The notes beneath the pieces were generated by a model. The model did not search any database, was not told the origin of the DNA, and saw only the letters and a program-made list of their open reading frames with translations. This document shows, in pieces, positions 2,831-21,279 of a stretch of DNA of 64,000 nt (the stretch's first letter is position 1; every line of letters starts with the position of its first letter). The position numbers and the translations under genes are program-made. Source of the stretch: Desulfosudaceae bacterium (lineage in GTDB: Bacteria > Desulfobacterota > Desulfobacteria > Desulfobacterales > Desulfosudaceae); the NCBI GenBank assembly GCA_963674745.2, contig CAXXDV010000003.1, positions 2,528,001 through 2,592,000 on the forward strand, read 5' to 3'.

Positions 2831-2929
2831 CTGTTATTATAAATGTTTTGACGATGTTTATGCTTATAAAATGGAAAACCGTTATTTTAAATGGTTCAAA
2901 ATGCCGGCCTAACAGGAATGGGAGGAAAC

Positions 2930-4018
2930 ATGAGAACGGGTAATCTGGTTATGAAAACGCTGGTCGCTATGTTACTTGCAATGGCAGTCTCAGGAATGTT
3001 CGTAACGACGGCCCCCGCCAAGATAGCGGGATACGATGTCCTCTTTCTTCACGGATTCGTCCCGGAAGATCTGATAACCAACCCCAGTGATCAAGAAATC
3101 TACGCCAGGCGGACACATTCGTCCTACTTTCGTGACCGGTCTGAAGGCTTTTTAAACTGGTCCAGCGCCGAACGCGTGGAAGGCAAAATTTCCCAGCAAC
3201 TGTTTGAACAGGCCAAGGTCTATTCCGCCCAGGGGATCGGCGTAGAGGGGTGCGTTCTGGTGACGGTCAGCACCGGTGACCAGGTTGCCCGGCATTTCAT
3301 AGAAAACCAGGCAACGTGGCTGGAAAACGCAGGGTACCAACCGCTGAACATTATCGCGACGCTCGATTTTGTCGGTGCCGGCGGCGGTACGGATATGGCG
3401 GATCTTGCCGTTGGGGCGGCTTTTCTGCCGGCGGCAACGAAAACAATTGTCGCCCTGGCATTTGGTCTGAGCCAGGATTTAGACAACTATAACAACCTCG
3501 GTGTGATTAACGATCTTACCTATAACGGCGCCAGGAGTCTTTCAATGCAGCCCAATGACGTCCCCCGCCTTCGTTTTTCAGCAGGCGGCAACGAAGGCAT
3601 TGATACGCTCAACCCGATGAGCCAGTTGATCCGGGGCGAAGACGATACCTTAATTCCGGCTTCATCAACCTGCGGTGCATCATCTCCGGCAGGCATTGAA
3701 AGCTGCTCAGCCTATGTTAATTATGAAGGCAAACAGGGGCGTTATAACGGCCCGGACGGTCTGCTCCATAATCACTTTCCGGTCCTGATGGCCAATGGCT
3801 ATAGCCATTACACCCTTGCCGATGATGCGAATAAGGGCAAGGCGACGTATGTGTATAACAATTTTAATGCCGGCCTGAATGTTGATTTTGATACCTATAC
3901 CAAAACCGTGACCCGGAGATGGTGGCAGTTCTGGATAGAAACCGGCACCTGGCAGTATGTAACGGATTCCGACACGAAATCCGTTGTGCGGCTGGTTTAT
4001 GAAACGCTTAATGAATAA
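2930..4018 (+). CDS. Secreted alpha/beta-hydrolase (lipase/esterase-like), copy 1
   Basis: GGAGG RBS before ATG 2930; signal peptide; oxyanion motif LFLHGF; nucleophile elbow TVSTG; GAGGGT; candidate catalytic Asp (EDDTLIP) and His (YSHYT). Confidence 0.7.
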   Translation: MRTGNLVMKTLVAMLLAMAVSGMFVTTAPAKIAGYDVLFLHGFVPEDLITNPSDQEIYARRTHSSYFRDRSEGFLNWSSAERVEGKISQQLFEQAKVYSAQGIGVEGCVLVTVSTGDQVARHFIENQATWLENAGYQPLNIIATLDFVGAGGGTDMADLAVGAAFLPAATKTIVALAFGLSQDLDNYNNLGVINDLTYNGARSLSMQPNDVPRLRFSAGGNEGIDTLNPMSQLIRGEDDTLIPASSTCGASSPAGIESCSAYVNYEGKQGRYNGPDGLLHNHFPVLMANGYSHYTLADDANKGKATYVYNNFNAGLNVDFDTYTKTVTRRWWQFWIETGTWQYVTDSDTKSVVRLVYETLNE

Positions 4019-5536: not shown

Positions 5537-6796
5537 CTATTGCTCAATAGAATAGGGGTTTAGAAACTGCCGTCTCCAAAGAAGATTCTTGTCCACTTCA
5601 TTCAACCTGGCTTCTTCACAGACGGCTTCCCAATGCTGTTCGATAGCGGCAGTCAGGCTACCGAATGTTTCGCGGGCTTCTTCCTCAGAAAGAAGGAAGT
5701 TGTGCGCGGCCTCAAGGCACGTTTTGAGTCGGCTCAGATTGTTGTCGCCGGAAATGAGCATAGCCTGTGAAGCCTCATTGCCTGTGCGGCCTTGCGGGCA
5801 AATATCATAAGCAGGCGTCAGGGTCAGTGCGTTGCCGTCCCAAAACGCCGCGTGGTTTCGCGCATGGTCGTCGGTATTGCCGCACAGAATATTAAAGACG
5901 AGCCGGGAGAACAGCTCTTTTAAGGTATGCTTCGGGTCGGTAAAACGGTGGCGGATAATTTCGGATAACGTTTCATAGCTGGCGTACCGCGCCCTCATGT
6001 CATCTAAGCCAAGCAGCGTCAGAGCGGAGACCATGGCCTTTCGTGCCCACTGGTCACCTTTTGGCACACGGTCAAAGCGTTCGATCAAGAGAACGTCTTT
6101 GTTTGCCGCTTTGGCAAGCTTTACCGGCGCGGCATTCAGCCCGGCCAATTGGGCCAACCGCATGGCGATGAATTCAGCTTTAACGACGCTGTACAGATCG
6201 GTGCTGGATGAAAATTTGGCTACGTACTTTTTGCCCTGGTCTTGAATTAAGGCTTTAGGACGAGCGCCGCCGATAGAGCTGCCATGGAACAACGCCTGAT
6301 CCAACTCCGGTGTGAGAGGCATGCCTTTTTCGACCCGTTCCGCGGATTCCATTAATTCTTCCAGGCTGACGATATTAGCGGTACGCGGCACGTACGCTAT
6401 AGGGGAGCGCTGAAAATCAAGCGCACCGATCCGGTCCGAGCCAGACTCCAGCAGGTAGGTCAGTTCATCCAGTTCTGCTGTATCTGTTCCCGCACCCTTA
6501 AGCCCCAACGTTTTGTTGATAATCACACGCCGTCCCCACGCGTCGGGCGCGGCATCCCTGATACAGCCGGGCATGGTCAAGTCATCGATCAAGGGCAACA
6601 GCCCGGCCTTTAGCGGCAATTCGGGTTCGTAAATCGCAATCGCCGGTTTGCTGTCACCGATACGATCCAGGTAGCTTTTACCATAGTTGAACAGGATTTT
6701 ACCGTTATCCGCTTCAAGCCGTCCGGCCACGACAGGCTCGGTTTCGTCCGGCAGCCATATCCAGACAAAGGCTTCTTTCTCCGTATTAGAAGTCAT
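5537..6796 (-). CDS. hipA: HipA-family kinase toxin
   Basis: HipA N-terminal region (DAAPDAWGRR), SSIGGARPKA, GNTDDHARNH, LTPAYDI. Confidence 0.92.
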   Translation of the reverse strand: MTSNTEKEAFVWIWLPDETEPVVAGRLEADNGKILFNYGKSYLDRIGDSKPAIAIYEPELPLKAGLLPLIDDLTMPGCIRDAAPDAWGRRVIINKTLGLKGAGTDTAELDELTYLLESGSDRIGALDFQRSPIAYVPRTANIVSLEELMESAERVEKGMPLTPELDQALFHGSSIGGARPKALIQDQGKKYVAKFSSSTDLYSVVKAEFIAMRLAQLAGLNAAPVKLAKAANKDVLLIERFDRVPKGDQWARKAMVSALTLLGLDDMRARYASYETLSEIIRHRFTDPKHTLKELFSRLVFNILCGNTDDHARNHAAFWDGNALTLTPAYDICPQGRTGNEASQAMLISGDNNLSRLKTCLEAAHNFLLSEEEARETFGSLTAAIEQHWEAVCEEARLNEVDKNLLWRRQFLNPYSIEQ

Positions 6797-7124
6797 CGCG
6801 CATCACTTTGGATTTCTTGCGAACGGATTTTGGCAGGAGCACCAGCTTTTCCCTGGTTTGACGTAAGTATTGCGTCAGTCTGTTTTCGTCTGCATCAAAC
6901 AGCTTGACGCCAACAATGGTTGCCACTTCGAACACGGCTCCGATTTCGCATTTGAGGTTGCCTTTTTCGATGCGTTGCAGCAGCCCTCTGGAAATACCAG
7001 CGCGATCGGCTAATTCCTGAGCGGTGAGCTTGCGCTCGTTACGGGCTTCTCGGATCAACGCGCCGATCAAAGCAGCCGCATCGCGGCTATAGCGTGAGTA
7101 GGTGCGTGTGATGGACTTTGGCAT
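6786..7124 (-). CDS. hipB: XRE-family HTH antitoxin (HipB-like)
   Basis: IREARNERKLTAQELADRAGISRGLLQRIEKG; overlaps the hipA start by 11 bp. Confidence 0.85.
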   Translation of the reverse strand: MPKSITRTYSRYSRDAAALIGALIREARNERKLTAQELADRAGISRGLLQRIEKGNLKCEIGAVFEVATIVGVKLFDADENRLTQYLRQTREKLVLLPKSVRKKSKVMRDDF

Positions 7125-7142
7125 CGCCTCTCCATTGATTCA

Positions 7143-7213
7143 CATATAGACCATAAAACAACTTAATGATCTTTATATGAACCAAAGATAGGGGGCGCTT
7201 ATCAGTTTGTCAA
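7143..7213 (-). promoter_or_regulatory. hipBA promoter and putative operator
   Basis: TTGACA(7213-7208)-17bp-TATCTT(7190-7185). An imperfect inverted repeat CATATAGACCAT...ATGATCTTTATATG (7143-7179) lies between the promoter and the RBS. Confidence 0.6.
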
Positions 7214-7222
7214 GAGAAAAAA

Positions 7223-7503
7223 GATAAAGATAAGAACTTGCTTTTATGGTCATTATGTATAGCAAGGACGGCCTTGTGCGTCAATATTTTTTAGGGCACC
7301 ACATGTTGATGGGCCTTTCAGGCGGGATTCGACAGAACATTATCAAAGCGATCACAAGACCCAAAAAAATGTCATGGAAGTGAAAAACAAGGAAAAGCGA
7401 GGGATTTTCAAGACAGCTCTACTGTGTCAGGCGGCCGAAAATATTGGGATTATTCCGCCCAGTAACCATAGTTGGGAACCTGCGACCAAAATCCGTCATC
7501 AGG
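7223..7503 (-). mobile_element. IS91-family right end, copy 2 (inverted relative to copy 1)
   Basis: The reverse complement aligns with 2260-2543. It encodes the same transposase C-terminus PDDGFWSQVPNYGYWAE* (7503-7450) and the same AAAAGCAAGTTCTTATC terminus. Confidence 0.65.
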
Positions 7504-7653
7504 CGCTTTTCACTTTTTCTGTTTTTTATCTCTTTGATAATGTTCTGCCATATCTCTACCAGGCATCACTTGCCTGCCGCGAATTTCGCAGTCGCAGCCA
7601 TATACCATGAAAAAACGTCTTAACATGACTGATTTTCATGGTATAAACAGCGT

Positions 7654-8556
7654 ATGCTGCCTCGAAAATCCTTACATGATAACCTGAAAAAAGCACTGGC
7701 CCGGTTTCTCATCCTGGGCAGCGCTTCAGGAAATCTCTTACGTCAGACCTCGGAAAGCCTTGCCGGAAGAATGGAGAGAGTCACCATGAGCGGCTTTTCG
7801 CTGGCGGAAATCAGCGAACAAAAAGAGGAACGATTGTGGCTGCGGGGTGGGTTCCCGCTTTCTTATCTGGCCCGGGATGATGCCGACAGCCTGGCTTGGC
7901 GTAAAAATTTTATTCAAACCCTGCTGGAGCGGGATTTTCCGCAATGGGGGGTGCGTGTACCGGCTACGACCCTGCTGCGGTTCTGGTTGATGACAGCACA
8001 TTATCATGGTCAGGTGTGGAAAGCGACCGAACCGGCCCGGGCGCTTGGTGTCAGCGAATCAAGCGTTCGCCGTTACCTGGACATCCTGACCGATGCCCTC
8101 ATGATCCGTCAGTTGCAGCCATATTACGCCAATTTAAGAAAGCGACAGGTCAAGTCCCCCAAAATTTATATCCGGGACAGCGGACTTTTGCATCAATTGC
8201 TCGGTATTGATTCCATGAAGGCCGTGCTCACTCATCCGAAAATTGGTGCATCCTGGGAAGGATTTGTTATTGAACAGATACTGCAATCCGAACCCCATGA
8301 CGAAGCCTTTTTCTGGGCTACCCACCAGGGCGCTGAAATTGACCTGGTCTTACGACGTGGGGGTGACCTTTATGGAATTGAATGCAACCGAACGGATACG
8401 CCCCGAATGACGCCGTCCATAAGGAATGCCATTGCGGACCTGGGATTGAAACATGTACTTATTCTCTACCCGGGAGTGCAGCGGTTTCCGTTATCCGACC
8501 AGGTAGAGGCGGTTCCGGTTCATGACCTCGCCAAAGACAGGCCACTGTTCGTTTAG
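7654..8556 (+). pseudogene. AAA+ ATPase / DUF4143 protein with an in-frame deletion of the Walker A/B region
   Basis: MLPRKSLHDNLKKALA joins directly to RFLILGSAS...SESLAGR, with no GPRQxGKT and no DE motif. The C-terminal DUF4143 part (VKSPKIYIRDSG, EIDLV) is present. Confidence 0.75.
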
Positions 8557-8639
8557 CATCATATGTATATAAGACCGGGCACAGCAAATACACACGATCA
8601 TCATTGCAATAGCCTGCTTAACGGATCTTTTTCTTATGG

Positions 8640-9695
8640 TTACAAAAGAGACAAATAATTCTGACGGTACTCACCGGGGGTAAAACCCGTCCATTTTTTA
8701 AAGGCCCGGTTAAAAGCGCTTTGCTCGGAGTAGCCGAGCAGGAAGGTGATATCGACGATAGGTATCTGGGATTGTTCAAGCAGTTGTATGGCGTGCTCTC
8801 TTTTTATCTTATCCAGTATGTCCTTATACTTTACCCCTTCTTTGCTTAGCTTGATCTGCAGGTTTCTTTTACTCATGGCCAGCTGACTGGAAATGGTTTC
8901 GATATCCGTCTTTCCGGAAAGTAAATTGTCAATTATCGCGGCTTCAACCTGTTCGGAAAACAGGTTTTCATGAAATATCTGTTTTTGAAGTTTCTCGGCA
9001 TGGGCCTTAAGTGTATCCAGGATTCCAGCGTTGGCAACCAGCACCGGCAGCGCCACGTATTTTCTATTAAAAGTCATCTTGTTTTCCTGCTGGTTAAACA
9101 GGACAGGACTTTTAAAAATACGATCATGCTCTTTTGTGCTTGCCGGTTGCGGATGAATAAACTGAACGCTGTCAAGCCTGATATGTTTACCGGTCAGACG
9201 GGTTAACAGATTATCATAATAAGCAAAATGGCCTTCGATAAAATGTCGGAGTTCATTCATATCTGTAAGTTCATATTGCAATTCAAGACAGATGGATGCG
9301 GTGCTGCCTTCCTCTGTAAAAACAGGTACGCAGACATCATGTATCAGGGGATAATACTTGCAGAAATTTGTTAATGCTTCACCCAGGGTGGGTGAGTTAA
9401 AGGTGATCACATGCATGGCATCCATAAAGAAATCAAATGCTTCACCCAGGTGCAGCCCGATATCGGGGTCATGAATGAGTTTCAGAACGGCTCTTGCCAG
9501 GTCATGCCCCTGCTCGGCGGGTAACCGCCCATTAGGGGCCTTGAGTAAATTTGAATCAAAACCCACTGTTTTTAAAAACCATTCGGGATCAATACCAAAT
9601 CGATCCCCCTCTTTGACAAGCATATTAATGAAGTCGACCGAAAAACTGGGATTTTTTATGATTTTGGCCTGGCGTCTGGTCAGCTCATTCGTCAT
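8640..9695 (-). CDS. AraC-family transcriptional regulator (long N-terminal ligand domain, OruR/ArgR type)
   Basis: C-terminal LAMSKRNLQIKL...ITFLLGYSEQSAFNRAFKKWTGFTPGEYR; N-terminal DPDIGLHLG and SPTLGEAL. Confidence 0.92.
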   Translation of the reverse strand: MTNELTRRQAKIIKNPSFSVDFINMLVKEGDRFGIDPEWFLKTVGFDSNLLKAPNGRLPAEQGHDLARAVLKLIHDPDIGLHLGEAFDFFMDAMHVITFNSPTLGEALTNFCKYYPLIHDVCVPVFTEEGSTASICLELQYELTDMNELRHFIEGHFAYYDNLLTRLTGKHIRLDSVQFIHPQPASTKEHDRIFKSPVLFNQQENKMTFNRKYVALPVLVANAGILDTLKAHAEKLQKQIFHENLFSEQVEAAIIDNLLSGKTDIETISSQLAMSKRNLQIKLSKEGVKYKDILDKIKREHAIQLLEQSQIPIVDITFLLGYSEQSAFNRAFKKWTGFTPGEYRQNYLSLL

Positions 9696-9748
9696 ATTCG
9701 GTCTCTATTTTATGGTGTGTTGATCGGCTTTCATAAGATACTCTAATG

Positions 9749-9827
9749 TTTTTTAAATTCATTTTTTCACAAAATGTCAAATCATATTCACATTTGGTCA
9801 AGACATAGTGCTCGAATATAATTTAAA
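9749..9827 (+). promoter_or_regulatory. Putative AraC-activated promoter of the GRE operon (tandem TTCACA-N4-GTCAA boxes)
   Basis: Direct repeats at 9766-9780 and 9787-9801 (21-bp period) and TATAAT at 9817-9822. Near-identical block at 24426-24504. Confidence 0.7.
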
Positions 9828-10142
9828 ATATATATTTAACCGGGCCTTTTCTTTACAAACTGGGATAAGGAATGGAACTCTACTCTCGTGTGATCAGGCA
9901 CCTCGGCACAAACTGCATCGGCGTTTCCAGTGTTCAGAATAGAGCTGTTTAATAACACGACCTTGATTGTTTTTATTTGAATTTAGGAAACGGGGAACAT
10001 TGTTGTTGCCTTAGATTGTTTTATGTGCATAATCAAATATATAGACCGTTTCACGGCAGAAGTGTTTTTTAGAAAGCAGGATGCCGTAAAAGCTTCGTTC
10101 AGGCAAAGCGAATAGTTTGCGACTGCAAATAAGGAGGGTATC

Positions 10143-12863
10143 ATGAGTGTCGGCGCGCAGTCACTTAATGTGGCGAGGACGCCTACCCAAAGGTTGAATG
10201 AGGACAGGATCTACAAAATTGTTCAGCTCAGGGAGGCCGAAGAACCGTCCGTCCATGAACCGGCCAAACAGACACTCAACCCTGATGTCAAGATCTGCCT
10301 TGAGCGGGCCGAACTGGTAACCGCGTCATACCGGCAGACCGAGGGCGAACCCTGGATTATTCGCCGCGCCAGGGCGCTCGCCCACCTCCTGGACAACATG
10401 ACCATTTACATCCTGGACAATGAACTGATCGTCGGAAATTACGCCAGCACGCCTGACAGCCTTCCCACATACCCGGAATTTTCTCACATGTGGCTGGAAA
10501 AGGGCCTGGACAATGAATTCAAGCACACCCTGGACGAGGAAGGAAAGAAGCGGCTGAAGGAGATCAACAGATATTGGGTCAACCACGATGTTGAGCACGT
10601 TCTGTACGAGGTGGTGCCCGATGAGCTGAAAAATCATCTCCACTGGAACGGGGTTGTCACAGGGCCCTGGTTCTGGCCTCTGGGGCACATGGTGCCCAAC
10701 TATCAGGACCGGGTGTTCCCGCTCGGCATCAAGGGCATGCTGGACGAGGTTGACCATTATCGTTCAAAGATATCCGAAACCGACCCCGAATACAGGGAAA
10801 AACTGGATTTTTATGAAGCCTGCGAAATCAGCGCCAGAGCGGTAACAGCCTGGATACTCCGTTATGCGAAACTGGCGCAGGAAAAGGCCGCCCGGGCCAA
10901 TGATGCCAGGCTCAAAGCCGACTTTTTGAAAGTGGCCGGGGTCTGTTCAAACATAGCCGAAAACCCGCCGCAAAATTTTCATGAAGCATTGCAGGCCTTC
11001 TGGTTCTTTCACCTGCTCACAACCCAGATCACCTGGAGTTCAGTGGGTTTGGGGCAACGATTTGACCAGCTCTTTTATTCATATTACCGGAAAGACAAAG
11101 AAGCAGGCCGGCTCACCTATGAGGGTGCGGTTGAACTGTTCGAGCACCTCTGGATCAAGCTTGACGACCTGGGCCAGATCAATCCGACGGAATCCTGTTA
11201 CATCCAGGTGGGCGGGACCAAATTCCAGAACGTAACCATCGGGGGAACGGACGAGTTTGGCAACGACGCCTCCAATGAATTGTCTTTTGCATGTGTCGAT
11301 GCCACCATGAACGTGCGCACCCTTCAGCCGGCACTCTGCCTGCGCTACCACGACAAAATCGACCCCAAACTGGTTGACAAGTCAATAGACTGCATTGTTT
11401 CCGGAATGGGTATGCCCTCGATTTTTAATGATAAAGCCGCCATTAAATACCTTTTAAGCTTGAGCTCCAGCGTATTCAAAGAATTTGAACCCGACCGGGT
11501 GACGTTGGACATGCTGGGGGTAAAGGTGTCGGGTTCCACGCAGGTACTCAGCAGGTCCGGCAGAATGGCAAGAAGGCTTGTCGAAAAAGCCCTGCCGGTT
11601 GCTGTTAAGGAAAAACTCGATAATACGCTTCGTGAGCTGCCATACTTCCTGCTGACCGATGGCGGGAAAACCGGGGCCTTTATTCGAAGCGGACTGAAAA
11701 AGATCGGGATGGATCTTGACCGGTTGCTGGTCATTCCCCGCAGCTGGGCCAGTGTGGCCTGTGTAGGCGCCGGCTTCCCCAACGGCCTGGTTATCCAGGG
11801 GACCCTGACCACAATCATTACCGCCGGCGTATTGAACTTTTTAAAATGCCTGGAGTACGTCCTGTACCAGGGGGTTGATCCGGCAACCGGCAACCAGCTG
11901 GGAATCAGGACGCCCGACCCCAGGACATTTCAGTCCTATGATGAATTTTTGGCCGCCTTTCTCGAACAGCTTAAACACCAGATAAACATGACCGGAAAAA
12001 TTTTCGAGATCGCGGACAGGCTTTACGCGGAAAGGACCCCGCGCCCACTGGAATCCCTGCTCATGAACACACCGGTCATCCGGGGCAAAGATGCGACCCG
12101 TAAAGGTGATTTTGCGGACAGTGAGATATTCACAATGGGGCCGGTAAATGCGGCTGATTCCCTGACAGCCGTAAAAAAACTCGTGTTTGACGACAAATCG
12201 GTTTCCATGGACGAGTTGATTAACGCCTGCCTTGCCGACTGGGAAGAATACGAAGACCTTCACCGTAAATGCCTCGACGTCCCCAAGTTCGGTAATGATA
12301 ACGACTATGCGGATCAGGTATTAAACCAGATGTACATTAAGGCAAACAGAGCGGTTTCCGGTATTAACAATCACCTTGGTGTGCCTTTCCGGCTGGAAGC
12401 GACCCTGGCCGGCGGGTACTTCATCGGCGGCATTTCATGCGGCGCGACGCCTGACGGGAGAAAGAAAGGGGAGACCGTAGCTGACGGTCAGCTCTCGCCC
12501 ATGCATGGGATGGACATGAACGGACCGACCGCGGTCCTCAAATCATGTTCCAAGGTCGATCCCGCCCAAAGCTGGAACCAATTGTGCAATCAAAAGATAC
12601 AGCCCGGGTTTATGAAAGGGAAAAACAGGGAGATGTTCACCCAGTATTTGAAAACCTGGGCTTCTTTCAATAACTGGCATATTCAATTCAACTGCCAGGA
12701 CGCCGAAGCGCTCAAGGACGCGCAGCTGCATCCGGAAAAGCACAAGAACCTTGTGGTCCGCGTTGCCGGTTACAGCGCTCATTTTGTTGACCTTACGCCC
12801 GGCCTGCAGAAAGACATCATCAGGCGCACGGAGCAGGACCTGGGCAGCTTCCGAAGCTGTTAA
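10143..12863 (+). CDS. Glycyl radical enzyme (PFL2-like superfamily), substrate unknown
   Basis: ICLERAELVTASY, ELIVGN, GQRFDQ, GATPDGRKKGE, GPTAVLKS; Gly loop LVVRVAGYSAHF (Gly876); Cys loop WASVACVG (Cys540); AGGAGG RBS. Confidence 0.93.
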   Translation: MSVGAQSLNVARTPTQRLNEDRIYKIVQLREAEEPSVHEPAKQTLNPDVKICLERAELVTASYRQTEGEPWIIRRARALAHLLDNMTIYILDNELIVGNYASTPDSLPTYPEFSHMWLEKGLDNEFKHTLDEEGKKRLKEINRYWVNHDVEHVLYEVVPDELKNHLHWNGVVTGPWFWPLGHMVPNYQDRVFPLGIKGMLDEVDHYRSKISETDPEYREKLDFYEACEISARAVTAWILRYAKLAQEKAARANDARLKADFLKVAGVCSNIAENPPQNFHEALQAFWFFHLLTTQITWSSVGLGQRFDQLFYSYYRKDKEAGRLTYEGAVELFEHLWIKLDDLGQINPTESCYIQVGGTKFQNVTIGGTDEFGNDASNELSFACVDATMNVRTLQPALCLRYHDKIDPKLVDKSIDCIVSGMGMPSIFNDKAAIKYLLSLSSSVFKEFEPDRVTLDMLGVKVSGSTQVLSRSGRMARRLVEKALPVAVKEKLDNTLRELPYFLLTDGGKTGAFIRSGLKKIGMDLDRLLVIPRSWASVACVGAGFPNGLVIQGTLTTIITAGVLNFLKCLEYVLYQGVDPATGNQLGIRTPDPRTFQSYDEFLAAFLEQLKHQINMTGKIFEIADRLYAERTPRPLESLLMNTPVIRGKDATRKGDFADSEIFTMGPVNAADSLTAVKKLVFDDKSVSMDELINACLADWEEYEDLHRKCLDVPKFGNDNDYADQVLNQMYIKANRAVSGINNHLGVPFRLEATLAGGYFIGGISCGATPDGRKKGETVADGQLSPMHGMDMNGPTAVLKSCSKVDPAQSWNQLCNQKIQPGFMKGKNREMFTQYLKTWASFNNWHIQFNCQDAEALKDAQLHPEKHKNLVVRVAGYSAHFVDLTPGLQKDIIRRTEQDLGSFRSC

Positions 12864-12898
12864 CCCGAATATTTACCGTCCCTAAAAAACCGTTTACG

Positions 12899-13888
12899 AT
12901 GTTCGACAAATTAAAACGCTTTTCCGGTAATTTTATAAGAACGTCTTCGGGCAAATCCCGTGAACCCGATGTCGCAGGCCGTATTTTTAATATCCAGAAG
13001 TTCAGTATTAACGATGGCCCGGGAATCAGGACCACTGTTTTTTTTAAAGGGTGCCCGCTGCACTGTGCCTGGTGCTCCAACCCGGAATCGATCAATCCCA
13101 ACCCCGAACTGATAACCAACTTTCAGGTCTGCGTCCACTGCAACCAATGCGTCGAGGCATGCACGCAAAACGCCATCATTGTAGAAAATTCCGAAAACAG
13201 CAGACCGGTGAGATCGATCAACCGCGAGAAGTGCAACGCATGCATGGATTGCGTCAAAAACTGTACCTCGGGTGCCCTGCGCTCTACAGGAAGTACTGTC
13301 TCTGCAAAAGCGGTTCTGGAAAAGGTCGAGCAGGACGTACCTTTTTACAACAACAGCGGTGGCGGGATCACCCTCTCCGGAGGCGAGCCCTTGCTTCAGC
13401 CTGAGTTTGCCCTTGCCATCCTGAAGCTCAGCAAGAGAAAAAAAATTCACACGGTTCTGGATACCAGCGGCTACGCTCAGAAAGAAGTCTTCAAAACCGT
13501 GCTGCCGTTTCTTGACCTGGTCATGTTTGACGTTAAGCATATGGATCCGGGAATTCACAAAAAATATACCGGGGTGGACAACAGGATAATTCAGGAAAAT
13601 CTCGGGTACCTGAACGGGAAAGTCAATATCTGGCTGCGCGTGCCTTTGATTCCGGGGTTCAACGATGACCAAGAAACGATTATCAAAATACTGGACCTGG
13701 CCGGGGATCTTTGTATAGAAAAGCTCTTTTTCCTGCCTTACCATCAATGGGGGATCGGTAAGTATTCGGGTTTGGGAAGAACATATACATTATCTGGTTT
13801 GGAGTCCATCCCTGATGAGAAAATTGAAGTTATAAGACATTTATGTAAATCCAGGAAAATCCGCAATTATGATATCGAACAGGGATAA
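12899..13888 (+). CDS. Glycyl-radical enzyme activating protein (radical SAM with 2x[4Fe-4S] insert)
   Basis: DGPGIRTTVFFKGCPLHCAWCSNPE; CVHCNQCVEAC and CNACMDCVKNC; GGITLSGGEP. Confidence 0.95.
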   Translation: MFDKLKRFSGNFIRTSSGKSREPDVAGRIFNIQKFSINDGPGIRTTVFFKGCPLHCAWCSNPESINPNPELITNFQVCVHCNQCVEACTQNAIIVENSENSRPVRSINREKCNACMDCVKNCTSGALRSTGSTVSAKAVLEKVEQDVPFYNNSGGGITLSGGEPLLQPEFALAILKLSKRKKIHTVLDTSGYAQKEVFKTVLPFLDLVMFDVKHMDPGIHKKYTGVDNRIIQENLGYLNGKVNIWLRVPLIPGFNDDQETIIKILDLAGDLCIEKLFFLPYHQWGIGKYSGLGRTYTLSGLESIPDEKIEVIRHLCKSRKIRNYDIEQG

Positions 13889-14127: not shown

Positions 14128-15207
14128 ATGACCAGCAAAGCCGAAAAATTACCTTCACCTGAAAAAAATAACGGGTTAAAGACGGATTCACCGAAAACCA
14201 GCGGCGCTTTTCAATCGGGGATAAAAAGAGCCCTGCCCCTGGTCGTGAGCGGCCTGCTCCTTTATTATTATTTTCGCGACCAGGACTGGGGTTCCCTGCT
14301 GGCCGCCGCCGGCAGGGCGGAAATAACAACGGCTGTCCTGGCCATCCTGATCCCCCAGTTAATCATCTGGATTTTTGACGTGTTGATAATCGATCGTCAC
14401 TTTCGCTGGTTCCACGCCCCATTTGACTGGCGCGCTTTCTTCCGGGTGCGCGGCGCCTTCTACATCATCCTTCTCGTCAACTACACCATCGGCGGCGGAG
14501 GGCTGCTGCTTTACCTGAAGCGCAAAACAGGCATGACCTGGGCAAGGTTGATGGGGATCGGCCTGTTCCGTTTCGGGCTGACCATGTTCGGCCTCTGCCT
14601 GCTCCTGATCCCGGCCACACTGGCCATGCAGTATTACGGCCTGGCAGCCAGGGCCCGGCTCAACATGCACCTCTGGTGGGCGGGGCTGATATTCAGCACC
14701 CTGTGGATGATTGAATCATGGACGTACTGGCACCACAAGCGCGGCGCCGGTCTCAGCAGCCTGCTCGCCGGCAACCGGGAAAGCGAGTTCTGGACAGCGT
14801 TTCAGAATGCATCCAAAAGGCAGTGGTTCCTTACCTGGGCCATGGGGCTGCCGCCGATTTTCATCATGCTCTCCGGTGTCTATATTCTGGCACTGGCGTT
14901 CAACATCCGCATTCCCTTGCCGGAATATATTGTCGTTGCGCCACTGATGTTTGTGATTGCAGACCTGCCGGTTTCATTCGGCGGGTTCGGCACCATGACC
15001 ATGGCCTGGTTCCTGTTCTTTGGTGATTACGGGGCAAGCGAAAATATCGCGGCACTGACCCTTTTTCTGCCGACCGTTCGCGCGATCATCAGGGCCGCCA
15101 TAGGGATGGTTTCACTGCCGTTCGCCATGAAAGACATCCCGACGCTGCTCAACGGCGGTATGCAGGGAACAGCGGATCAACCACAGCCGGAACCCGGAGA
15201 AGCATGA
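14128..15207 (+). CDS. Integral membrane protein, lysylphosphatidylglycerol-synthase TM / flippase-like (UPF0104)
   Basis: LVVSGLLLYYYFRDQDW N-terminus, about 8 TM segments, DLPVSFGGFG motif. Confidence 0.65.
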   Translation: MTSKAEKLPSPEKNNGLKTDSPKTSGAFQSGIKRALPLVVSGLLLYYYFRDQDWGSLLAAAGRAEITTAVLAILIPQLIIWIFDVLIIDRHFRWFHAPFDWRAFFRVRGAFYIILLVNYTIGGGGLLLYLKRKTGMTWARLMGIGLFRFGLTMFGLCLLLIPATLAMQYYGLAARARLNMHLWWAGLIFSTLWMIESWTYWHHKRGAGLSSLLAGNRESEFWTAFQNASKRQWFLTWAMGLPPIFIMLSGVYILALAFNIRIPLPEYIVVAPLMFVIADLPVSFGGFGTMTMAWFLFFGDYGASENIAALTLFLPTVRAIIRAAIGMVSLPFAMKDIPTLLNGGMQGTADQPQPEPGEA

Positions 15208-15230: not shown

Positions 15231-17294
15231 TTATCTCTTGCTGCCATAAGGGATACCCAGTTTGTTCATCCTGTTCCGGAGGGTGCCGGGTTTTATTTTC
15301 AGCATTTCAGCAGCGCCCCCGGGGCCGTTTATCTTGCCGCCTGCAAGGGCCAGCACTTTTGTGATATGCTTGATATATACCTTATCCATTTCCAGGTCCT
15401 CATTTTCAGCATTCTCGCTGTCCGGTGAAGCGTTAATCGGCAGCCGGAGGCCAATGTTCTGAAAAGAGAGTGCTCCCCCCTTGCAAAGAATCAATTCCCT
15501 TTCAATAATATTCTCCAGTTCTCTTACGTTACCCGGCCATTCATAATTGAACAGCCTGTCAATGGCATCGGGAGAGAGAGATGGTTTGTTTTTGAGATTC
15601 AGTTCCCGGGATTTCTTCTCAATGAAATGATTCACCAGGGCCGGAATATCCGAACGCCTCAATCTCAGAGGCGGAATCCGGATGGGGAAGACGTTCAGGC
15701 GGAACCACAGGTCCTCCCTGAACTGCCCGGATGCCACCAGTTCTTCCAGGTTGCGATGGGTGGCGGCGATGATGCGGACGTCAACAGGTATGGTTTCCGT
15801 TCCGCCAACACGTTCGATGACTTTATTCTGAATCACCCGGATCAGACGGACCTGGGCCTGGAGGGTCATTTCTGCGATTTCATCCAGAAAGATCGTTCCG
15901 CCATTGGCCCGTTCGAAGCGGCCAATTCCCCGGGATTCAGCGCCGGTGAACGAGCCCTCCTCATGACCGAACAGTTCGCTGTCCACCAGCGTTTCCGGTA
16001 TGGCGCCGCAATTGACCTTGATCAAGGGACCGTCCCTTCTGAATGATTTCCAGTGGATGAAATTAGCAATCATTTCCTTGCCCACGCCGGTTTCACCCAG
16101 CAGCAAGACCGGGCTGTCCTTATTGGCAACGAGACGGGCATTTTCCACAACCGTTTTAAGACCCGAGGTTTCACCGACAAGAATATCCTCCCTGGTCTCC
16201 TGCAGTTCTTCCTGAAGTGCCGCCCTCTCTTGTTCGAGGATATTCTTCAGCTCGATGATTTCGCGGTTCTTGATATGATTTGAAAGCGCCAGGGCAAAAA
16301 GATCATGGAGCATTGAAAACCAGTGCCTGTGTTCTTCCGTATAGGCGTTTTTTCCTTCGGTAATGACGGAAGCGATGCCCAGCGGCTCCCTGTCATGCAT
16401 AAGGAACATGGTAAGCGCCGACCAGTTGGCACCGTACATTTCCACATAACGGTTCAGGGCGGGGAATCTTTCGGGTTGATTGATAATAACAACTTTGGGA
16501 GAAGTTGTCTTTCCCTCGGGACTCAGATGTTCTGTATACCGGGTCAACAGCTCAGTATTGAAATAGTCAAAAACCCCGTTCGGACTGACCCCGATAAAAC
16601 CGTCCATCGGGTTTGTAAAATGCTTGTGAACGGTAAGCATGGCAACCGGCATAAACCGGCTGAGGTATTGCAGGCAGTGCAAAACACCGGCTTCAAGATC
16701 AAGATGACCGCATAACCGTTTGGTGACCTGGCGGAAGAATTCATATTTATCGCCCACAGGTTCTTTCTGACCGGGTCCGGCGGATTTTCCGGCATAATCC
16801 TCAATGACGGCATTCAGAAACCATTTATGCTCATTATACAAACCAAAAACCTGGCGGGCATGGTTTTCTGTAAACCGGTTCCTGCCTCTGGCAACAAAAA
16901 AGATTGCCCCGTAAGCGACAGATCGTTTTTTAAAGACTGTACCCAGCGCAGACCAGTCCGAAAAGCTGAATCCTGTCGCGATATAGTTCCCGATCGGGTC
17001 CATTTCCGGTTCATTAATAATGTATGTGTCTGGCAAGCTCCGGGTTTTCGATAGCTGATGGATTTCTTCGGGAACCGAAAATAAAAAATTTGTTTTCTCA
17101 CAACCTGTGTCAGCGGCCTGGGCAATGAACCGTACCACATGCCGGTCAGAATCATATTGAAACATGTTCATCCGATCAACAGGCAGTATCTGGCGAAGAT
17201 AACCATAGAACGCGTATAGCGCCTCGTAGATGTCCCCGCCCGAGGCTGCATGCCGCATTATCCGTTTCAAATCACTGTCTGGTTTGTTTTTCAT
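15231..17294 (-). CDS. sigma54-dependent activator (tandem GAF-like domains, AAA+, Fis HTH), copy 1
   Basis: GETGVGKE, ELFGHEEGSFTGA, FLDEI, WPGNVREL, C-terminal HTH. Confidence 0.93.
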   Translation of the reverse strand: MKNKPDSDLKRIMRHAASGGDIYEALYAFYGYLRQILPVDRMNMFQYDSDRHVVRFIAQAADTGCEKTNFLFSVPEEIHQLSKTRSLPDTYIINEPEMDPIGNYIATGFSFSDWSALGTVFKKRSVAYGAIFFVARGRNRFTENHARQVFGLYNEHKWFLNAVIEDYAGKSAGPGQKEPVGDKYEFFRQVTKRLCGHLDLEAGVLHCLQYLSRFMPVAMLTVHKHFTNPMDGFIGVSPNGVFDYFNTELLTRYTEHLSPEGKTTSPKVVIINQPERFPALNRYVEMYGANWSALTMFLMHDREPLGIASVITEGKNAYTEEHRHWFSMLHDLFALALSNHIKNREIIELKNILEQERAALQEELQETREDILVGETSGLKTVVENARLVANKDSPVLLLGETGVGKEMIANFIHWKSFRRDGPLIKVNCGAIPETLVDSELFGHEEGSFTGAESRGIGRFERANGGTIFLDEIAEMTLQAQVRLIRVIQNKVIERVGGTETIPVDVRIIAATHRNLEELVASGQFREDLWFRLNVFPIRIPPLRLRRSDIPALVNHFIEKKSRELNLKNKPSLSPDAIDRLFNYEWPGNVRELENIIERELILCKGGALSFQNIGLRLPINASPDSENAENEDLEMDKVYIKHITKVLALAGGKINGPGGAAEMLKIKPGTLRNRMNKLGIPYGSKR

Positions 17295-17356
17295 AAATTG
17301 TTCCCGTAATTATTTCAGCCGGGATATCTCATCTTCAGGCCGTCCTGGCACAATTT

Positions 17357-17400
17357 AATGTAGCGGAGGGCTGCGCCCTCCAAAATTATGGAAGGCTGAA
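17357..17400. repeat. GTAG-type REP doublet (left part; continues at 19160-19178 after the IS)
   Basis: GTAGCGGAGGGCTGCGCCCTCC, plus an inverted GGAAGGC-TGAA-GCCTTCCGCTAC once the IS is removed. Confidence 0.75.
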
Positions 17401-19159
17401 CAGGCTGTCCAACAACCTGTTGTTTGAGCCCCCGCGTTCATGTTTGAAAATTGTAAATTTTTCCTTTAAAGATAGCTAAAAAATTAAATTATATACTTGA
17501 TTTTATTGAAAAAATATTATATTTATAACTCCAAGTCAATCTTATTTCGAGGAGTTTATTTTGAGCGTCCGTGAACCCAAAAACGTCAGGCCTTATTGCC
17601 AAAACCAAAGTCTTTTGTTTCCTCCCAACCTGCTGGACTTTATCCAACATGATGACCTCTGCATGGTTGTCGATGATGTCGTCAACACGCTTGATCTCTC
17701 CTGTCTTTACCGCAAAACATCTTATGAAGGGAACATGTCGTATCATCCTAAAATGATGTTGAAAGTCCTGTTCTATTCCTATGCCAGCGGGATCTTCAGT
17801 TCTCGCCGCATTGCCAAAGCGTTGGGTGAAAATATCGCCCTTATCTATCTGGCCGCCTGGCAACGGCCGGACTTCCGCACGGTTAATAACTTCAGGCGCA
17901 ACAATTTAAGCGAGCTTGAGGATTTATTTATTCAAATTGTCCGTCTCTGCCAGCAGCTTAAAATGGTTACACTCGGCCATATATCTATCGATGGTTCCAA
18001 GTTCAAAGCCAATGCCGCGGATCGGCAGTCATATGACCGGGCCCGCATTGAAAAAGAGATGAAGCGTCTTCTGGAAAAGGCGACGGAAAAAGATCGTGAA
18101 GAAGACGCTCTTTACGGTTCGGATAAATCCGGAGATGAACTTCCCGAGGATATCCGGAACCGGAACCGCCGTATCGAAAGATTAAAAAAACTTCGGCAGC
18201 AACTGGATCAGGAAGACAAGAAAAAACTCAATGCTACTGATCCAGAGGCGGTGTTCATGAAAACAAAAAATCGTTTTCAAACATCATACAACGCGCAGGC
18301 CTCGGTCGACGAAACATCTCAGATTGTCATTGCCGCCAAGGTGATCAATACCAACGACCGGGATCAGTTGTTGCCGATGATTGAACAGACAGCACAAAAC
18401 ACACAGGCGTCGGTCCGTATCGTAAGCGCTGATGCCGGTTACAGTTCAGTCAATAACCTTGAAAAACTGGAAGGCATCGAAGGCCTAGACGCTTACATCC
18501 CGGATGATACCTACCAGAGCCACAGCCGCGGGCATAAAGACACGTCTTTTGATAAAAGCAAGTTCATTTATGACGAATCGGCTGATGTGTTTACCTGCCC
18601 TGCCGGCAAGGCCTTAGCGTTCTGGCAAAGCAAGCAGGACAAATGCGCCGACTATCGGGTTTATCGCTGCCGGGAGTGCAAAGTCTGTCCGCATTTTGGA
18701 GAGTGCACCAAAAACAGACGAGGACGGACCATCTGGCGGATGGTGGGAGAAGAACGGATCAAAGCCATGCGCTCAAAGCTGGACAGTGACACCGGCAAGG
18801 CCATTTACGCTAAGCGAAAGCATATAGTCGAGCCTGTCTTCGGGCACATAAAAACAGTCATCGGTTTTACCGGGTTCCACCTGCGGGGGTTACACAAGGT
18901 CAATGGGGAGTTCATGTTGGTGGCCATTGCCCACAATCTGAAAAAAATATCAAAAAAAGGTTACAAAAAAGGGATTGGCCTTACCCCAATGACAGTAAAA
19001 ATGTAATACGGAGGCAGAGGAGCCTGGTTTTATGCTTCCAGCGACAAAAAAGCTTGGCGTCGAGATATTTAAATAAAATTTTCAAAGAGCAGGCGATCAA
19101 CTAACGAAATCGGACCGCATAAAAATCAAAAACATATAGGAAGGCTGCGGGACAGCCTG
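17401..19159 (+). mobile_element. IS1182-family insertion sequence, apparently complete
   Basis: TIRs CAGGCTGTCCAACAACCT / AGGCTGCGGGACAGCCTG (15/18 match) and a 4-bp target duplication TGAA (17397-17400, 19160-19163). Confidence 0.9.
17561..19006 (+). CDS. IS1182-family DDE transposase
   Basis: YHPKMMLKVLFYSY...SSRRI, IDGSKFKANA, ADAGY, VEPVFGHIK, AHNLKK. Confidence 0.93.
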   Translation: MSVREPKNVRPYCQNQSLLFPPNLLDFIQHDDLCMVVDDVVNTLDLSCLYRKTSYEGNMSYHPKMMLKVLFYSYASGIFSSRRIAKALGENIALIYLAAWQRPDFRTVNNFRRNNLSELEDLFIQIVRLCQQLKMVTLGHISIDGSKFKANAADRQSYDRARIEKEMKRLLEKATEKDREEDALYGSDKSGDELPEDIRNRNRRIERLKKLRQQLDQEDKKKLNATDPEAVFMKTKNRFQTSYNAQASVDETSQIVIAAKVINTNDRDQLLPMIEQTAQNTQASVRIVSADAGYSSVNNLEKLEGIEGLDAYIPDDTYQSHSRGHKDTSFDKSKFIYDESADVFTCPAGKALAFWQSKQDKCADYRVYRCRECKVCPHFGECTKNRRGRTIWRMVGEERIKAMRSKLDSDTGKAIYAKRKHIVEPVFGHIKTVIGFTGFHLRGLHKVNGEFMLVAIAHNLKKISKKGYKKGIGLTPMTVKM

Positions 19160-19209
19160 TGAAGCCTTCCGCTACATTGTTTTCTGCATATGGAAAGCGC
19201 AGCATTTTG

Positions 19210-21279
19210 CTATACACGCTTTTTCCGACCATAGGGAATACCCAGTTTCTTCATCCTGTTGCGGAGCGTGCTGGATTTAATATTCAATAATTCCGCAGCA
19301 CCGCCCGGGCCTTCAATCTTCCCGTTTGCAAGCCTCAGGACTTTCTTTACATGCCGGACAAAGACTTCATCCAGCCCTAAGACATCATTGCCCGTGAGCG
19401 CCTCTTCCGGAGCGATTTCATCCGGCTGTTTCAGGCCGATGTCATGGAACGCAAGCGTTTTGCCCCTGTTCAGGAGCAGTTCCCGTTCAATCACATTTTT
19501 CAGTTCGCGTATGTTCCCCGGCCAATCATAAGCGGTCAGCCGCCTCATCGCATCGGGCGACAGAGTCGGTGTGTCATGGAGTTTCAATTCACGGGATTTC
19601 TGTTCAACAAAATAATCCACAAGGGCCGGGATATCCATCTTGCGCGATCTCAGCGGGGGAACCAGGATCGGAAACACATTCAGGCGAAACCACAGGTCTT
19701 CCCTGAACCGGCCGGTCACGACCATTTCATCCAGGTTGCGGTGCGTAGCGGCGATAATACGGACGTCAACGGGCACTATATCGGTACCGCCCACGCGTTC
19801 GATTACCTTGCCCTGCAGAACCCGGAGGAGGCGGACCTGAGCCTGGAGGGGCAGCTCGCCTATTTCATCCAGAAAAATCGTCCCCTTGTCGGCCCTTTCA
19901 AAGCGCCCTTTTTTCTGCTTCACTGCACCTGTGAAGGCGCCCTTCTCATGGCCGAACAGCTCGCTGTCCACCAGCGTATCCGGTATGGCGCCGCAATTCA
20001 CTTTGATAAAGGGCATATTGTTTCGTAACGATTTCCGGTGGATGAAATTCGCTATAAGTTCCTTTCCAACGCCGGTTTCACCTGACAGCAACACCGGGCT
20101 GTCCTGGCCGGATACCAGGAGTGCATTTTCCATCACACCTTTGAGACTGCCCAGATTACCGCCGATAATAGCATCTTCGCTGTTAATATCTAACGCTCTT
20201 TCAAGGTCTTTCTTTTCCTGTTCGATAAGGTTTTTCAGCTGGACGGCTTCGCGGTATTGAATCGTGTTGGAAAGCGCCAGTGCAAACGGGTCGTGAAGCG
20301 ATGAAAATAACGCTTTATGATTTTCATTATAGCGGTTTCGCCCTTCCAATCCGATTCCCGCTATACCGAACAACTCATTCTCGCGAATAAGCGGCATCGT
20401 CATTCCCGAAATGAGCCCGTACAACTCTATATAAGGGCGAAACTCAGGATGATGTTCAGGCTGATTGATAATAAAGGTGGAAAATCGCCCCCTGCTGTCA
20501 AGCGGCAGCAGCGCATCCGGTGTCCAGGGGATAAGCGGCTCCGACCGTTGATGCAAAATCCCCTCGCTCTGCGCCATAACACGGTTTGCCTGCAACCCGG
20601 GTTCAAGCTTCAAAATTAGAAGTACGTCAGCCGGCAGAAAACGGCTGAGATACTGAAGACATCGGGTAGCACCTGTTTGCAGATCCAGATGACCGCAGAG
20701 CCTTAAAGTGACCTGGTGAAAAAATTCATTTTTGCTTTTCACGGGTTCTTTCAGGATGGAAGGGCAGGTATTCTTTTCATCTTCTGAAATAATGGCGTCC
20801 AGAACCCGTTGAAAGGGTTTTCTCAAGGATGTCAGCAGGCGGGTATGTGTTTCGGTCAGTTGATCCCTGCCGGGAGCCCAGAACATTACCGATCCATAGA
20901 TCCTTTTTTCATCTTTAAAGTTCAAGAACAGGGTTGACCAGTCTAAAATCCTGGACCGCTCGCCGAACTCTTTCAATAAAGGTGAAGGGTCGGTTTCCGG
21001 TTGATTTACAATGAGGTTTTCAGGCCACTGCACTCCGGCATCCGGCATTAATTTTTCCGGAACGTCGTACATGAAGCCGGTTTTGCCGCTTCCCCGGGCA
21101 GTAGCCTGTGCGACAACCCGCAACAGCTTTCTGGAATAATCAAATTTGATGATGTTTATTTTGGTTATGGGGGTCACACCTGAAATAGAATGATAAATTT
21201 CAGACAACCCTCCCTCAAGATCGCCTTCCGCGACAGTGCGTCGTACCGATTGCAAAAGAGCGTCGGGATTGATTGTCAT
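19210..21279 (-). CDS. sigma54-dependent activator (tandem GAF-like domains, AAA+, Fis HTH), copy 2
   Basis: GETGVGKE, HEKGAFTGA, FLDEIGE, WPGNIREL. Paralog of 15231..17294 (shared FF.QVT.RLCGHLDL...CLQYLSRF). Divergent from hydrolase 2. Confidence 0.93.
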   Translation of the reverse strand: MTINPDALLQSVRRTVAEGDLEGGLSEIYHSISGVTPITKINIIKFDYSRKLLRVVAQATARGSGKTGFMYDVPEKLMPDAGVQWPENLIVNQPETDPSPLLKEFGERSRILDWSTLFLNFKDEKRIYGSVMFWAPGRDQLTETHTRLLTSLRKPFQRVLDAIISEDEKNTCPSILKEPVKSKNEFFHQVTLRLCGHLDLQTGATRCLQYLSRFLPADVLLILKLEPGLQANRVMAQSEGILHQRSEPLIPWTPDALLPLDSRGRFSTFIINQPEHHPEFRPYIELYGLISGMTMPLIRENELFGIAGIGLEGRNRYNENHKALFSSLHDPFALALSNTIQYREAVQLKNLIEQEKKDLERALDINSEDAIIGGNLGSLKGVMENALLVSGQDSPVLLSGETGVGKELIANFIHRKSLRNNMPFIKVNCGAIPDTLVDSELFGHEKGAFTGAVKQKKGRFERADKGTIFLDEIGELPLQAQVRLLRVLQGKVIERVGGTDIVPVDVRIIAATHRNLDEMVVTGRFREDLWFRLNVFPILVPPLRSRKMDIPALVDYFVEQKSRELKLHDTPTLSPDAMRRLTAYDWPGNIRELKNVIERELLLNRGKTLAFHDIGLKQPDEIAPEEALTGNDVLGLDEVFVRHVKKVLRLANGKIEGPGGAAELLNIKSSTLRNRMKKLGIPYGRKKRV

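Follow-up and report, generated by a model that had tools for sequence, protein, structure and literature searches.

Glycyl radical enzymes (GREs) are grouped into seven classes in section 5.1 of a 2026 review (PMC13450708). In that account the eliminases and isomerases all keep a CXE motif, the glutamate (Glu) of which binds the substrate hydroxyl, the formate lyases have two adjacent Cys-loop cysteines, and the aminoacyl radical enzymes have no radical glycine. In the X-succinate synthases (XSS) the fumarate-binding arginine is Arg508 of benzylsuccinate synthase (BSS) and Arg492 of (1-methylalkyl)succinate synthase (MASS), situated at Cys+15 (PMC12358834). A further point of reference is PhdB, described in PMC7079210 and in section 5.4 of PMC13450708 as a single-subunit GRE decarboxylase with a CXQ motif, an essential glutamine and a proposed hydrogen-atom abstraction. 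Here we analyse the gene for an oxygen-sensitive GRE at positions 10143..12863 (forward strand) of a 64,000-nucleotide stretch of DNA from Desulfosudaceae bacterium (assembly GCA_963674745.2, contig CAXXDV010000003.1, positions 2,528,001 to 2,592,000), referred to below as the window. Its 906 aa product, a member of an uncharacterised clade lacking the Cys-loop Glu, appears to be functional and to represent a GRE family not described before, set apart by an ancestral insertion that is unique to it. The reading we favour, and hold to be reasonably probable from sequence, is that of a functional stand-alone single-subunit GRE with a dedicated activase, belonging to an uncharacterised Glu-less class in which the insert would be accessory and lie at the surface.

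Catalytic loops and the described GRE classes

The gene has a ribosome-binding site, AAGGAGG (10131..10137, forward strand; read from the sequence), 5 nt before its ATG, and a gene for a GRE-activating radical S-adenosylmethionine (SAM) enzyme (12899..13888, forward strand; 329 aa) starts 35 nt after its stop. The GRE matches the Pfam PFL-like domain (PF02901, 1.7e-159) and the Gly_radical domain (PF01228, 1e-25, residues 783-882). Its Cys loop, RSWASVACVGAG (residues 533-544; 11739..11774, forward strand), has a lone cysteine, Cys540 (codon 11760-11762), in the arrangement A539-C540-V-G542, and the residue at C+2 is thus Gly542 and not Glu. The Gly loop RVAGYS (residues 873-878; 12759..12776, forward strand) contains Gly876 (codon 12768-12770). 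An earlier note on this DNA had claimed an intact GRE with a complete activase and no Cys-loop Glu, and both open reading frames, their Pfam domains and the two catalytic loops bear this out. Cys540 is invariant across all 75 rows of alignment A4 and pairs with the catalytic Cys of MasD in a HMMER alignment. In a 12-sequence alignment of the family R533, C540, V541 and G544 are invariant and W535 nearly so, and Gly876 is also invariant within the family. The residue at C+2 is G, A or T, and never Glu, in 22/22 aligned family rows (a count that includes duplicates and one partial sequence). The Gly loop, the barrel domain, the loop Cys and the radical SAM activase together place the protein, as far as sequence can, in the PFL-like GRE superfamily.

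The activase reaches the cut-off of TIGR02494, a glycyl-radical activase subfamily, with 342.6 bits against 174.35. It has the CX3CX2C motif as CPLHCAWC at residue 52 and two ferredoxin-type CX2CX2CX3C motifs for auxiliary clusters, CVHCNQCVEAC at residue 78 and CNACMDCVKNC at residue 112. Among NCBIfam models it scores 321.7 with HpsH and 315.1 with HypD-AE, whereas the BssD model (TIGR04003) gives 230.4 against a cut-off of 496.45 and ranks below five other activase types. By these scores the activase appears nearer to those of eliminases and decarboxylases than to BssD.

No NCBIfam equivalog cut-off is reached by the window GRE, and TIGR01774 (PFL2/glycerol dehydratase subfamily) gives 545.3 bits, in two stretches, under a cut-off of 678.2. 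Assignment as an eliminase or isomerase is rejected on C540-V-G542, which is not CXE, and on equivalog scores of 379.8-459.5 bits against cut-offs of 1000-1100. For a formate lyase (PFL, TdcE), A539-C540 is not a pair of cysteines and TIGR01255 gives 62.8 bits against 994.2. An aminoacyl radical enzyme, with Ala, Ser or Thr for the glycine, is set aside by the presence of the family-invariant Gly876. The known GRE decarboxylases are rejected on 370.3 bits against 1100 for NF033718 (indoleacetate decarboxylase, IAD), 301.7 against 1150 for NF033715 (HPAD large subunit) and a Gly at C+2, the criterion there being Glu (HPAD, IAD) or Gln (PAD), with PAD and AAD set apart by description only. Finally, an XSS is rejected on Ile558 in place of the fumarate-binding Arg, on the lack of HiPIP-like or rubredoxin-like small subunits and on an activase below the BssD cut-off. 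The fumarate-binding Arg, which the earlier note had singled out as a residue to look for, proved absent by alignment: Ile558 (11814..11816, forward strand) occupies the column of BSS Arg508 and MASS Arg492 both in the HMMER alignment to 9o8u_A and in a MAFFT alignment to a MasD-like paralogue from the same genome, where Cys+15 is Arg, and Arg is found there in none of the family members. Since the Arg, the Glu, the second Cys and the small subunits are all missing and the scores lie under the cut-offs, the protein would be a member of no characterised class, that is, by its sequence, neither an eliminase or isomerase, a formate lyase, an XSS nor a known decarboxylase. The lack of a place in a characterised family, as anticipated in the earlier note, agrees with an identity of at most 30% to any solved GRE.

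The best matches in the PDB by phmmer are 1r8w (5.2e-122) and 5i2a (5.9e-122). All 36 PDB GRE sequences align in two blocks, approximately 43-440 and 551-898, and among these alignments the Cys loop is crossed only by those of TutD (from residue 533) and MasD (from 532). The eliminases (1R8W, 5I2A/5I2G, HypD 6VXC, HpzG 8IOF, CutC) give the best overall sequence and Foldseek E-values and share with the window GRE a single-subunit build and a ferredoxin-insert activase; however, they keep CXE, and neither the Cys loop nor the insert is covered by their alignments. The XSS (BssA/TutD 4PKC, 5BWE; MasD 9O8U) also lack a Glu at C+2, have a Cys loop of the same R-x-W-x-x-x-A/L-C type that HMMER can align, fall in the same Glu-less superclade and give the highest query-normalised Foldseek TM-scores (0.76-0.77), at an identity of just 24-27%. 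Both the XSS and the family occur in hydrocarbon-degrading Desulfobacterota. Relative to the XSS, the window GRE is longer on both sides of the Cys loop, by the 85-aa insert ahead of it and by 3 residues behind it; it also has Thr754 at the position of BSS Gln707 and MASS Glu690, and no genes for beta, gamma or delta Fe-S subunits. The claim that the loop pattern is closer to that of the fumarate-adding enzymes therefore stands, given the alignment with MasD and TutD only and the shared superclade.

The insert and the family that carries it

The Cys-hairpin topology of GREs is described in section 4.1 of PMC13450708 and in PMC12358834. In the window GRE the columns of residues 436 to 532, before the hairpin, enclose 96 residues. 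We examined the 150 nearest 50%-identity cluster representatives, of which 149 have an aligned Cys, and the spacer is 11 residues in 118 of them, 12-16 in 29, and 92 and 99 in the remaining two, both members of the same family as the window GRE. With 96 residues in place of the usual 11, the insert amounts to about 85 aa. It lies between the FND strand and the Cys hairpin (residues ~441-529; 11463..11729, forward strand), is predicted to be helical, and confirms in position and size the insert of 85-90 aa that the earlier note had placed at about 11463-11730. In a set of 18 distinct sequences, left after removal of duplicates (L087 is P0001, L088 is P0002, and L093 is nearly L092), the insert measures 88-99 aa in 15/15 long forms and 25 aa in 3/3 short forms, which makes it a conserved trait and no lesion of a single strain. 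All 18 sequences keep R533, C540, V541, G544 and the Gly loop. Of the two outcomes that the earlier note had named as fatal to its proposal, a place inside a characterised GRE family with this loop and insert, or a strain-specific lesion in an enzyme that forms no glycyl radical, neither is borne out.

The three short forms make up one clade nested among the long forms, near the subclade of the window GRE (IQ-TREE, 29 rows), and an approximately unbiased (AU) test rejects monophyly of the long forms (log-likelihood difference 51, p 0.00016). As the short forms are nested in this way, the insert is ancestral in the family and was deleted once, later. Outside the insert only four positions (K319, I427, A671, P807) are conserved in the long forms and changed in all short forms, which suggests that the catalytic core works in the same way without the module.

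Mean pairwise identity among the long forms is 0.30 in the insert as against 0.63-0.64 in the flanking core, and the insert thus appears to evolve about twice as fast as the core. Conserved within it are G459, LP484-485, PY499-500, G508, R515 and D525. An AlphaFold2 model built on a shallow alignment of 13 rows (mean predicted local distance difference test score, pLDDT, 74.6) has helices at 430-447, 452-457, 464-483, 486-505, 508-520 and 525-538, with pLDDT of 57-75. The net charge of the insert is between 0 and +13 in 15/15 long forms. The best reading of these data is that the insert is an ancestral, fast-evolving, basic and probably helical module between the first half-barrel and the Cys hairpin.

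Searches with the insert returned no relatives outside these GREs. No Pfam family matched residues 436-535, even with E values of up to 5 allowed, and a word-indexed search for stand-alone insert-like proteins of 55-175 aa gave 1 candidate, with none scored. In the ESM Atlas the best value was 0.88, under the level that counts, from PFL-like fragments only. BLAST of the insert against the rest of its own protein gave a best E of 0.79, a hidden Markov model of the insert run against the six-frame translation of the genome found only the GRE gene itself, and a PDB search with the 51-residue Cys-loop segment alone gave chance matches only (E 1.5).

The family set consists of the window GRE, P0001-P0010 and P0013, together with loci from genomes, metagenomes and relatives of the host; for the 29-row IQ-TREE a G005 sequence nearly identical to P0010 was added. 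Word-indexed and exhaustive searches of very large protein collections yielded just a few relatives that have this loop and insert; of these P0001-P0010 are 55-73% identical to the window GRE, and pairwise core identity within the family is 54-85%. In a library clustered at 50% identity the family comprises only P0013 and the fragment P0014, all other sequences being at most 43% identical. A genome scan, with each prokaryote species represented by a single genome, confirmed 552 GRE relatives, and the best 80 of these include just two family members (2 of 78 genome loci), L009 and L010, of which L010 comes from a Smithella metagenome-assembled genome (MAG); 7 of the 9 loci found by a metagenome scan with family-specific patterns belong to the family. 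Among 40 relatives of the window's genome one, from the same taxonomic family, carries a member, and neither of two same-genus genomes (71% and 99% complete) has a match to the window GRE query. Clusters of the family at 90% identity hold 1-3 sequences each. The named sources are a Desulfosudaceae MAG, a Smithella MAG and a Nitrospirota MAG, and the rest are metagenome contigs. No description of the family was found in the open literature searched, subscription journals not being covered. From its sequences this appears to be a small, rare and undescribed GRE family.

Two family loci have an unusual arrangement. The metagenome locus L092 (865-7323), and with it L093, has two tandem family paralogues (888 and 889 aa) of different subclades, both with the insert, with a single activase after them and a divergent GntR/FCD regulator before; such paralogues could form a hetero-oligomer, or could have two substrate specificities served by one activase. 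At the P0002 locus GRE and activase are separated by a gene for a 585-aa radical SAM protein (L088:4846-6603) with a weak cutinase-like N-terminal match; metallophosphoesterase and macro-domain genes come next, and a second, partial PFL-like gene stands 8 kb downstream.

The family is monophyletic with support 100 both in a FastTree phylogeny of 61 rows, where its stem is 0.51, and in the IQ-TREE of 29 rows. In the former a Glu-less clade of 42 rows (support 100) unites the family, its Glu-less sisters and a branch with the genome's MasD-like paralogue and C-M-S-P-type rows, and the HypD and PflD-like CXE rows fall outside it. An NCBIfam scan of 60 representatives labelled one HypD above cut-off and five members of the PFL2-3 subfamily, so that this tree is without most characterised enzymes. 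Among the 149 nearest cluster representatives the Cys-loop Glu is absent in 75; Glu-less orphan GRE clades are common in sequence space, and the loss of Glu in the window GRE is more commonplace than the earlier note had suggested.

The sister group in both trees consists of the Glu-less clusters P0015-P0025 (loci L011-L015), which are 37-43% identical. Like the family they lack Glu at C+2, where S, G, Q, R, W, S, S, T, I and Y are found instead, and the activase adjoins or lies near the GRE in 4 of 5 sister loci examined; unlike the family they have a normal spacer of 11-12 residues, no insert and other loop motifs. One sister locus, in a Chloroflexia MAG (L012:5977-16772), has four tandem GREs (805, 832, 813 and 815 aa); a single activase follows the first of them, and upstream there is a duplicated-TetR (YsiA-like) regulator. 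Near another sister-clade GRE (L015:6025-6828, reverse strand) there is a likely phage-defence gene, the product of which binds cyclic nucleotides and has a TIR effector domain of the CAP12/Pycsar type.

The genome of the window has 10 Gly_radical matches. A canonical mas operon, for MASS, lies 2.4 Mb from the window GRE (L096, G000:C3:108000-124000), which makes the host probably an alkane degrader. Within L096 it consists of an activase (2517-3497), a MasC-like gamma subunit (6295-6459), the MasD-like alpha subunit (6515-9013), which gives 1259 bits to 9o8u_A, a Cys-rich beta-like open reading frame (ORF) (~9100-9458) and a MasE-like subunit (9480-9716). A tblastn search of the genome found the small subunits as single copies at this operon, with no second copy. 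No Cys-rich small ORFs flank the GRE or its activase, and tblastn with the MasC-, MasE- and beta-like subunits gave a best E of 0.09 in the window, upholding the earlier claim that no small-subunit genes flank the GRE. The other eight GRE paralogues (L100-L107) reach no NCBIfam equivalog cut-off; three of them are open frames of ~1000-1040 aa with a RISGYNAYF Gly loop and an N-terminal extension of ~200 residues, and in a fourth, of 1110 aa, the frame is likewise open and the extension comes to ~280 residues.

Proposed mechanism and alternative readings

If the intact, invariant motifs are taken at face value, the radical would pass from the activase to Gly876, to Cys540 and then to the substrate. 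With Gly, Ala or Thr at C+2, any acid/base help would have to come from residues aligned to barrel strands. Thr754, in Glu752-Ala753-Thr754 (12396..12404, forward strand), aligns to BSS Gln707, MASS Glu690 and Tyr640 of glycerol dehydratase. Two residues before it, in the stretch aligned to 'FQPGLYP' of glycerol dehydratase, is Glu752, which is invariant in the family and is Asp in 7 of 13 sister representatives. The family-invariant residues that differ from the CXE clade include Q295, S300, Q305, K360, E752, Q783, N812 and Q813, and the polar nature of these residues, on stretches aligned to barrel strands of solved GREs, argues against a purely hydrophobic pocket. Glu752 and Lys360 are candidate acid/base residues. 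The insert itself would not be catalytic but accessory, with a role in gating, oligomerisation or partner docking.

The unit conserved across the family loci is GRE plus activase, usually with a divergent regulator. All 6 family loci with more than 1 kb of sequence beyond the GRE have an adjacent activase; in one of them a second tandem GRE, and in another an additional radical SAM gene, comes in between. Of the 9 loci for which sequence upstream is available, 5 (L010, L090 (cut), L092, L093 and L099) have a divergent GntR/FCD regulator, a figure that becomes 4 of 8 for independent loci, L092 and L093 being nearly identical; the divergent regulator is of the MarR type at L088 and of the AraC type in the window. 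FCD-type GntR regulators generally sense carboxylates. One family locus (L089) has a gene for enoyl-CoA hydratase in its vicinity, and genes for acyl-CoA dehydrogenase, enoyl-CoA hydratase, carboxyl-transferase and YsiA-like TetR regulators lie near sister-clade GREs. From these regulators and acyl-CoA genes near relatives we would guess, with low confidence, at a carboxylate-bearing aliphatic compound as the substrate.

Several points weigh against the picture of a stand-alone Glu-less enzyme with an ancestral accessory insert and such a substrate. The substrate hint is weak: the acyl-CoA genes are mostly beside sister-clade GREs and not beside family members, the genes neighbouring the GRE differ between family loci, and the regulator in the window is AraC and not GntR. 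Both trees were rooted arbitrarily, all XSS reference rows except the MasD-like paralogue were labelled by loop motif only, and the group submitted to the AU test was chosen with a first tree already in view. Finally, the confidence of the AlphaFold2 model is low at the Cys loop (pLDDT 46-56) and at other active-site loops.

It is unlikely, though worth weighing, that the protein is an organic-acid decarboxylase that acts by hydrogen-atom abstraction without a Cys-loop Glu, in the manner of PhdB, and releases a hydrocarbon or a similar product. The GntR/FCD regulators, of a kind that generally senses carboxylates, would fit, as would a conserved unit of just GRE, activase and divergent regulator with no downstream pathway genes. 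PhdB itself provides a precedent, as a single-subunit decarboxylase with CXQ and no Glu (PMC7079210). However, the decarboxylase equivalogs lie far under their cut-offs, and the family has Gly, Ala or Thr at C+2 (C-V-G in the window GRE) and not the essential Gln of PhdB, an enzyme compared here by its description only.

A bolder proposal, and in our view a distinctly doubtful one, is that of a new functional class: a stand-alone relative of the XSS in which a helical domain gates the channel instead of the Fe-S subunits and a barrel-strand Glu, in place of one on the Cys loop, assists radical C-C bond forming or breaking on an aliphatic acid. Were this true, examples would be hydroalkylation with an acceptor other than fumarate, or decarboxylation to an alkane or alkene, and the setting would be alkane- and fatty-acid-degrading anaerobes.

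Quite improbable is a fumarate-adding hydroalkylase, again a relative of the XSS, that has dispensed with Fe-S subunits and in which the insert has taken over a solubilising or gating role. Its appeal lies in the Cys loop, across which only MasD and TutD align, in the C-terminal half of the protein, for which the nearest sequence is the MasD-like paralogue of the genome (33.7% over 403 aa), and in the well-supported clade of 42 rows common to the family and XSS-like rows. Among the hosts are a Smithella MAG and a probable alkane degrader that has a mas operon, and genes for enoyl-CoA hydratase, acyl-CoA dehydrogenase and carboxyl-transferase lie near sister loci. In PMC13450708 the gamma subunits are described as covering a hydrophobic patch and the beta subunits as gating the channel, functions that an insert might assume. 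Set against this are Ile558, with Arg at that column in no family member, Thr754 at the position of MASS Glu690 and BSS Gln707, an activase well under the BssD cut-off, and no conserved succinate-processing genes adjoining family members. The insert has no conserved Cys or His in the 15 long forms, and hence no cluster ligands, and it has been deleted in a nested lineage with the core almost unchanged. The suggestion in the earlier note that it replaces the Fe-S small subunits thus finds no support, and the insert would not be a stand-in for them.

The earlier note had also suggested that the insert docks the enzyme on a lipid or hydrocarbon substrate. That it is an amphipathic anchor which keeps the enzyme at the membrane, to act there on a lipid or a long-chain hydrocarbon, is very improbable. 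The insert is basic (+5 in the window GRE, and from neutral to basic across the long forms) on an acidic protein (-18 for the remainder), helix 464-483 has a hydrophobic moment of 0.64, and a membrane-protein gene follows the activase in the window. However, no stretch of the insert is transmembrane or hydrophobic (its highest Kyte-Doolittle mean over 19 residues is 1.02), its other helices have moments (0.33-0.55) within the range of core helices (0.21-0.54), and the membrane-protein gene was not seen beside the GRE at the other family loci examined. Moreover, the short forms lack the module and the family residues aligned to barrel strands are polar, and the docking proposal is not supported by these observations. 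That the gene is a decaying paralogue with a disrupted catalytic loop is scarcely credible, notwithstanding the ten GRE genes of the genome, the variable character of the region, in which a transposase and a toxin-antitoxin pair are encoded, and the lack of a match in both same-genus genomes searched, as the frames are open, a ribosome-binding site is present, the activase is complete, the core is 54-85% identical pairwise with invariant Cys- and Gly-loop residues, and the insert keeps conserved motifs.

Returning to the stand-alone Glu-less enzyme, section 7 of PMC13450708 points out that entire GRE clades are still without experimental validation and that activation problems and multi-subunit architecture impede work on hydrocarbon-activating GREs. 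The family would offer a small, well-delimited target, one polypeptide and an activase, evolutionarily near the XSS. Three features are distinctive: a module of 85-90 residues; natural forms with and without it, a ready-made experiment on its role; and a single-subunit enzyme close to multi-subunit hydrocarbon activators in a host that also has the canonical enzyme. New chemistry would mean a further class beside the seven recognised, and perhaps a simpler scaffold on which to functionalise C-H bonds by radicals; should the reaction be ordinary, the family still documents the tolerance of large insertions at the base of the Cys hairpin. The weight of the finding is tempered by how common Glu-less orphan clades are, at half of the nearest representatives (75/149).

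Neighbouring genes and minor observations

Divergent from the GRE, across a spacer of 447 nt, is an AraC-family regulator gene (8640..9695, reverse strand; PF12625, Arabinose_bd, 3.8e-35; PF12833, HTH_18, 1.9e-16), which from its position alone is likely the local regulator of the GRE operon. The membrane-protein gene mentioned above (14128..15207, forward strand) begins 239 nt after the activase and encodes a polytopic protein of 359 aa with a sub-cut-off match to LPG_synthase_TM (23.9 against 33.4 bits); a link to the GRE is doubtful. The GC content of the GRE region (0.49-0.52) is not distinct from that of its surroundings (0.44-0.55), and there is thus no compositional sign of recent transfer. 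Because two sigma-54 activators are encoded nearby, we searched for a sigma-54 promoter upstream of the GRE; the window has 28 matches where 34.5 are expected, and none lies within 9695-10143. These two activators (687 and 689 aa, alike in length and architecture, the second with a GAF domain) flank a DDE transposase (17561-19006) within positions 15231-21279.

On the other side of the GRE, a HipA-like kinase toxin gene (419 aa) overlaps a gene for a helix-turn-helix antitoxin-like protein (112 aa) at 5537-7124, and the pair is followed by a DUF4143 AAA ATPase gene (7654-8556). The toxin-antitoxin pair and the ATPase are typical of a variable genome region. Further along the window, at 50433-58175 on the reverse strand, a protein of 2580 aa has Calx-beta repeats and PhoD_N, purple-acid-phosphatase-N and fibronectin type III domains, and is presumably a surface or adhesion protein.

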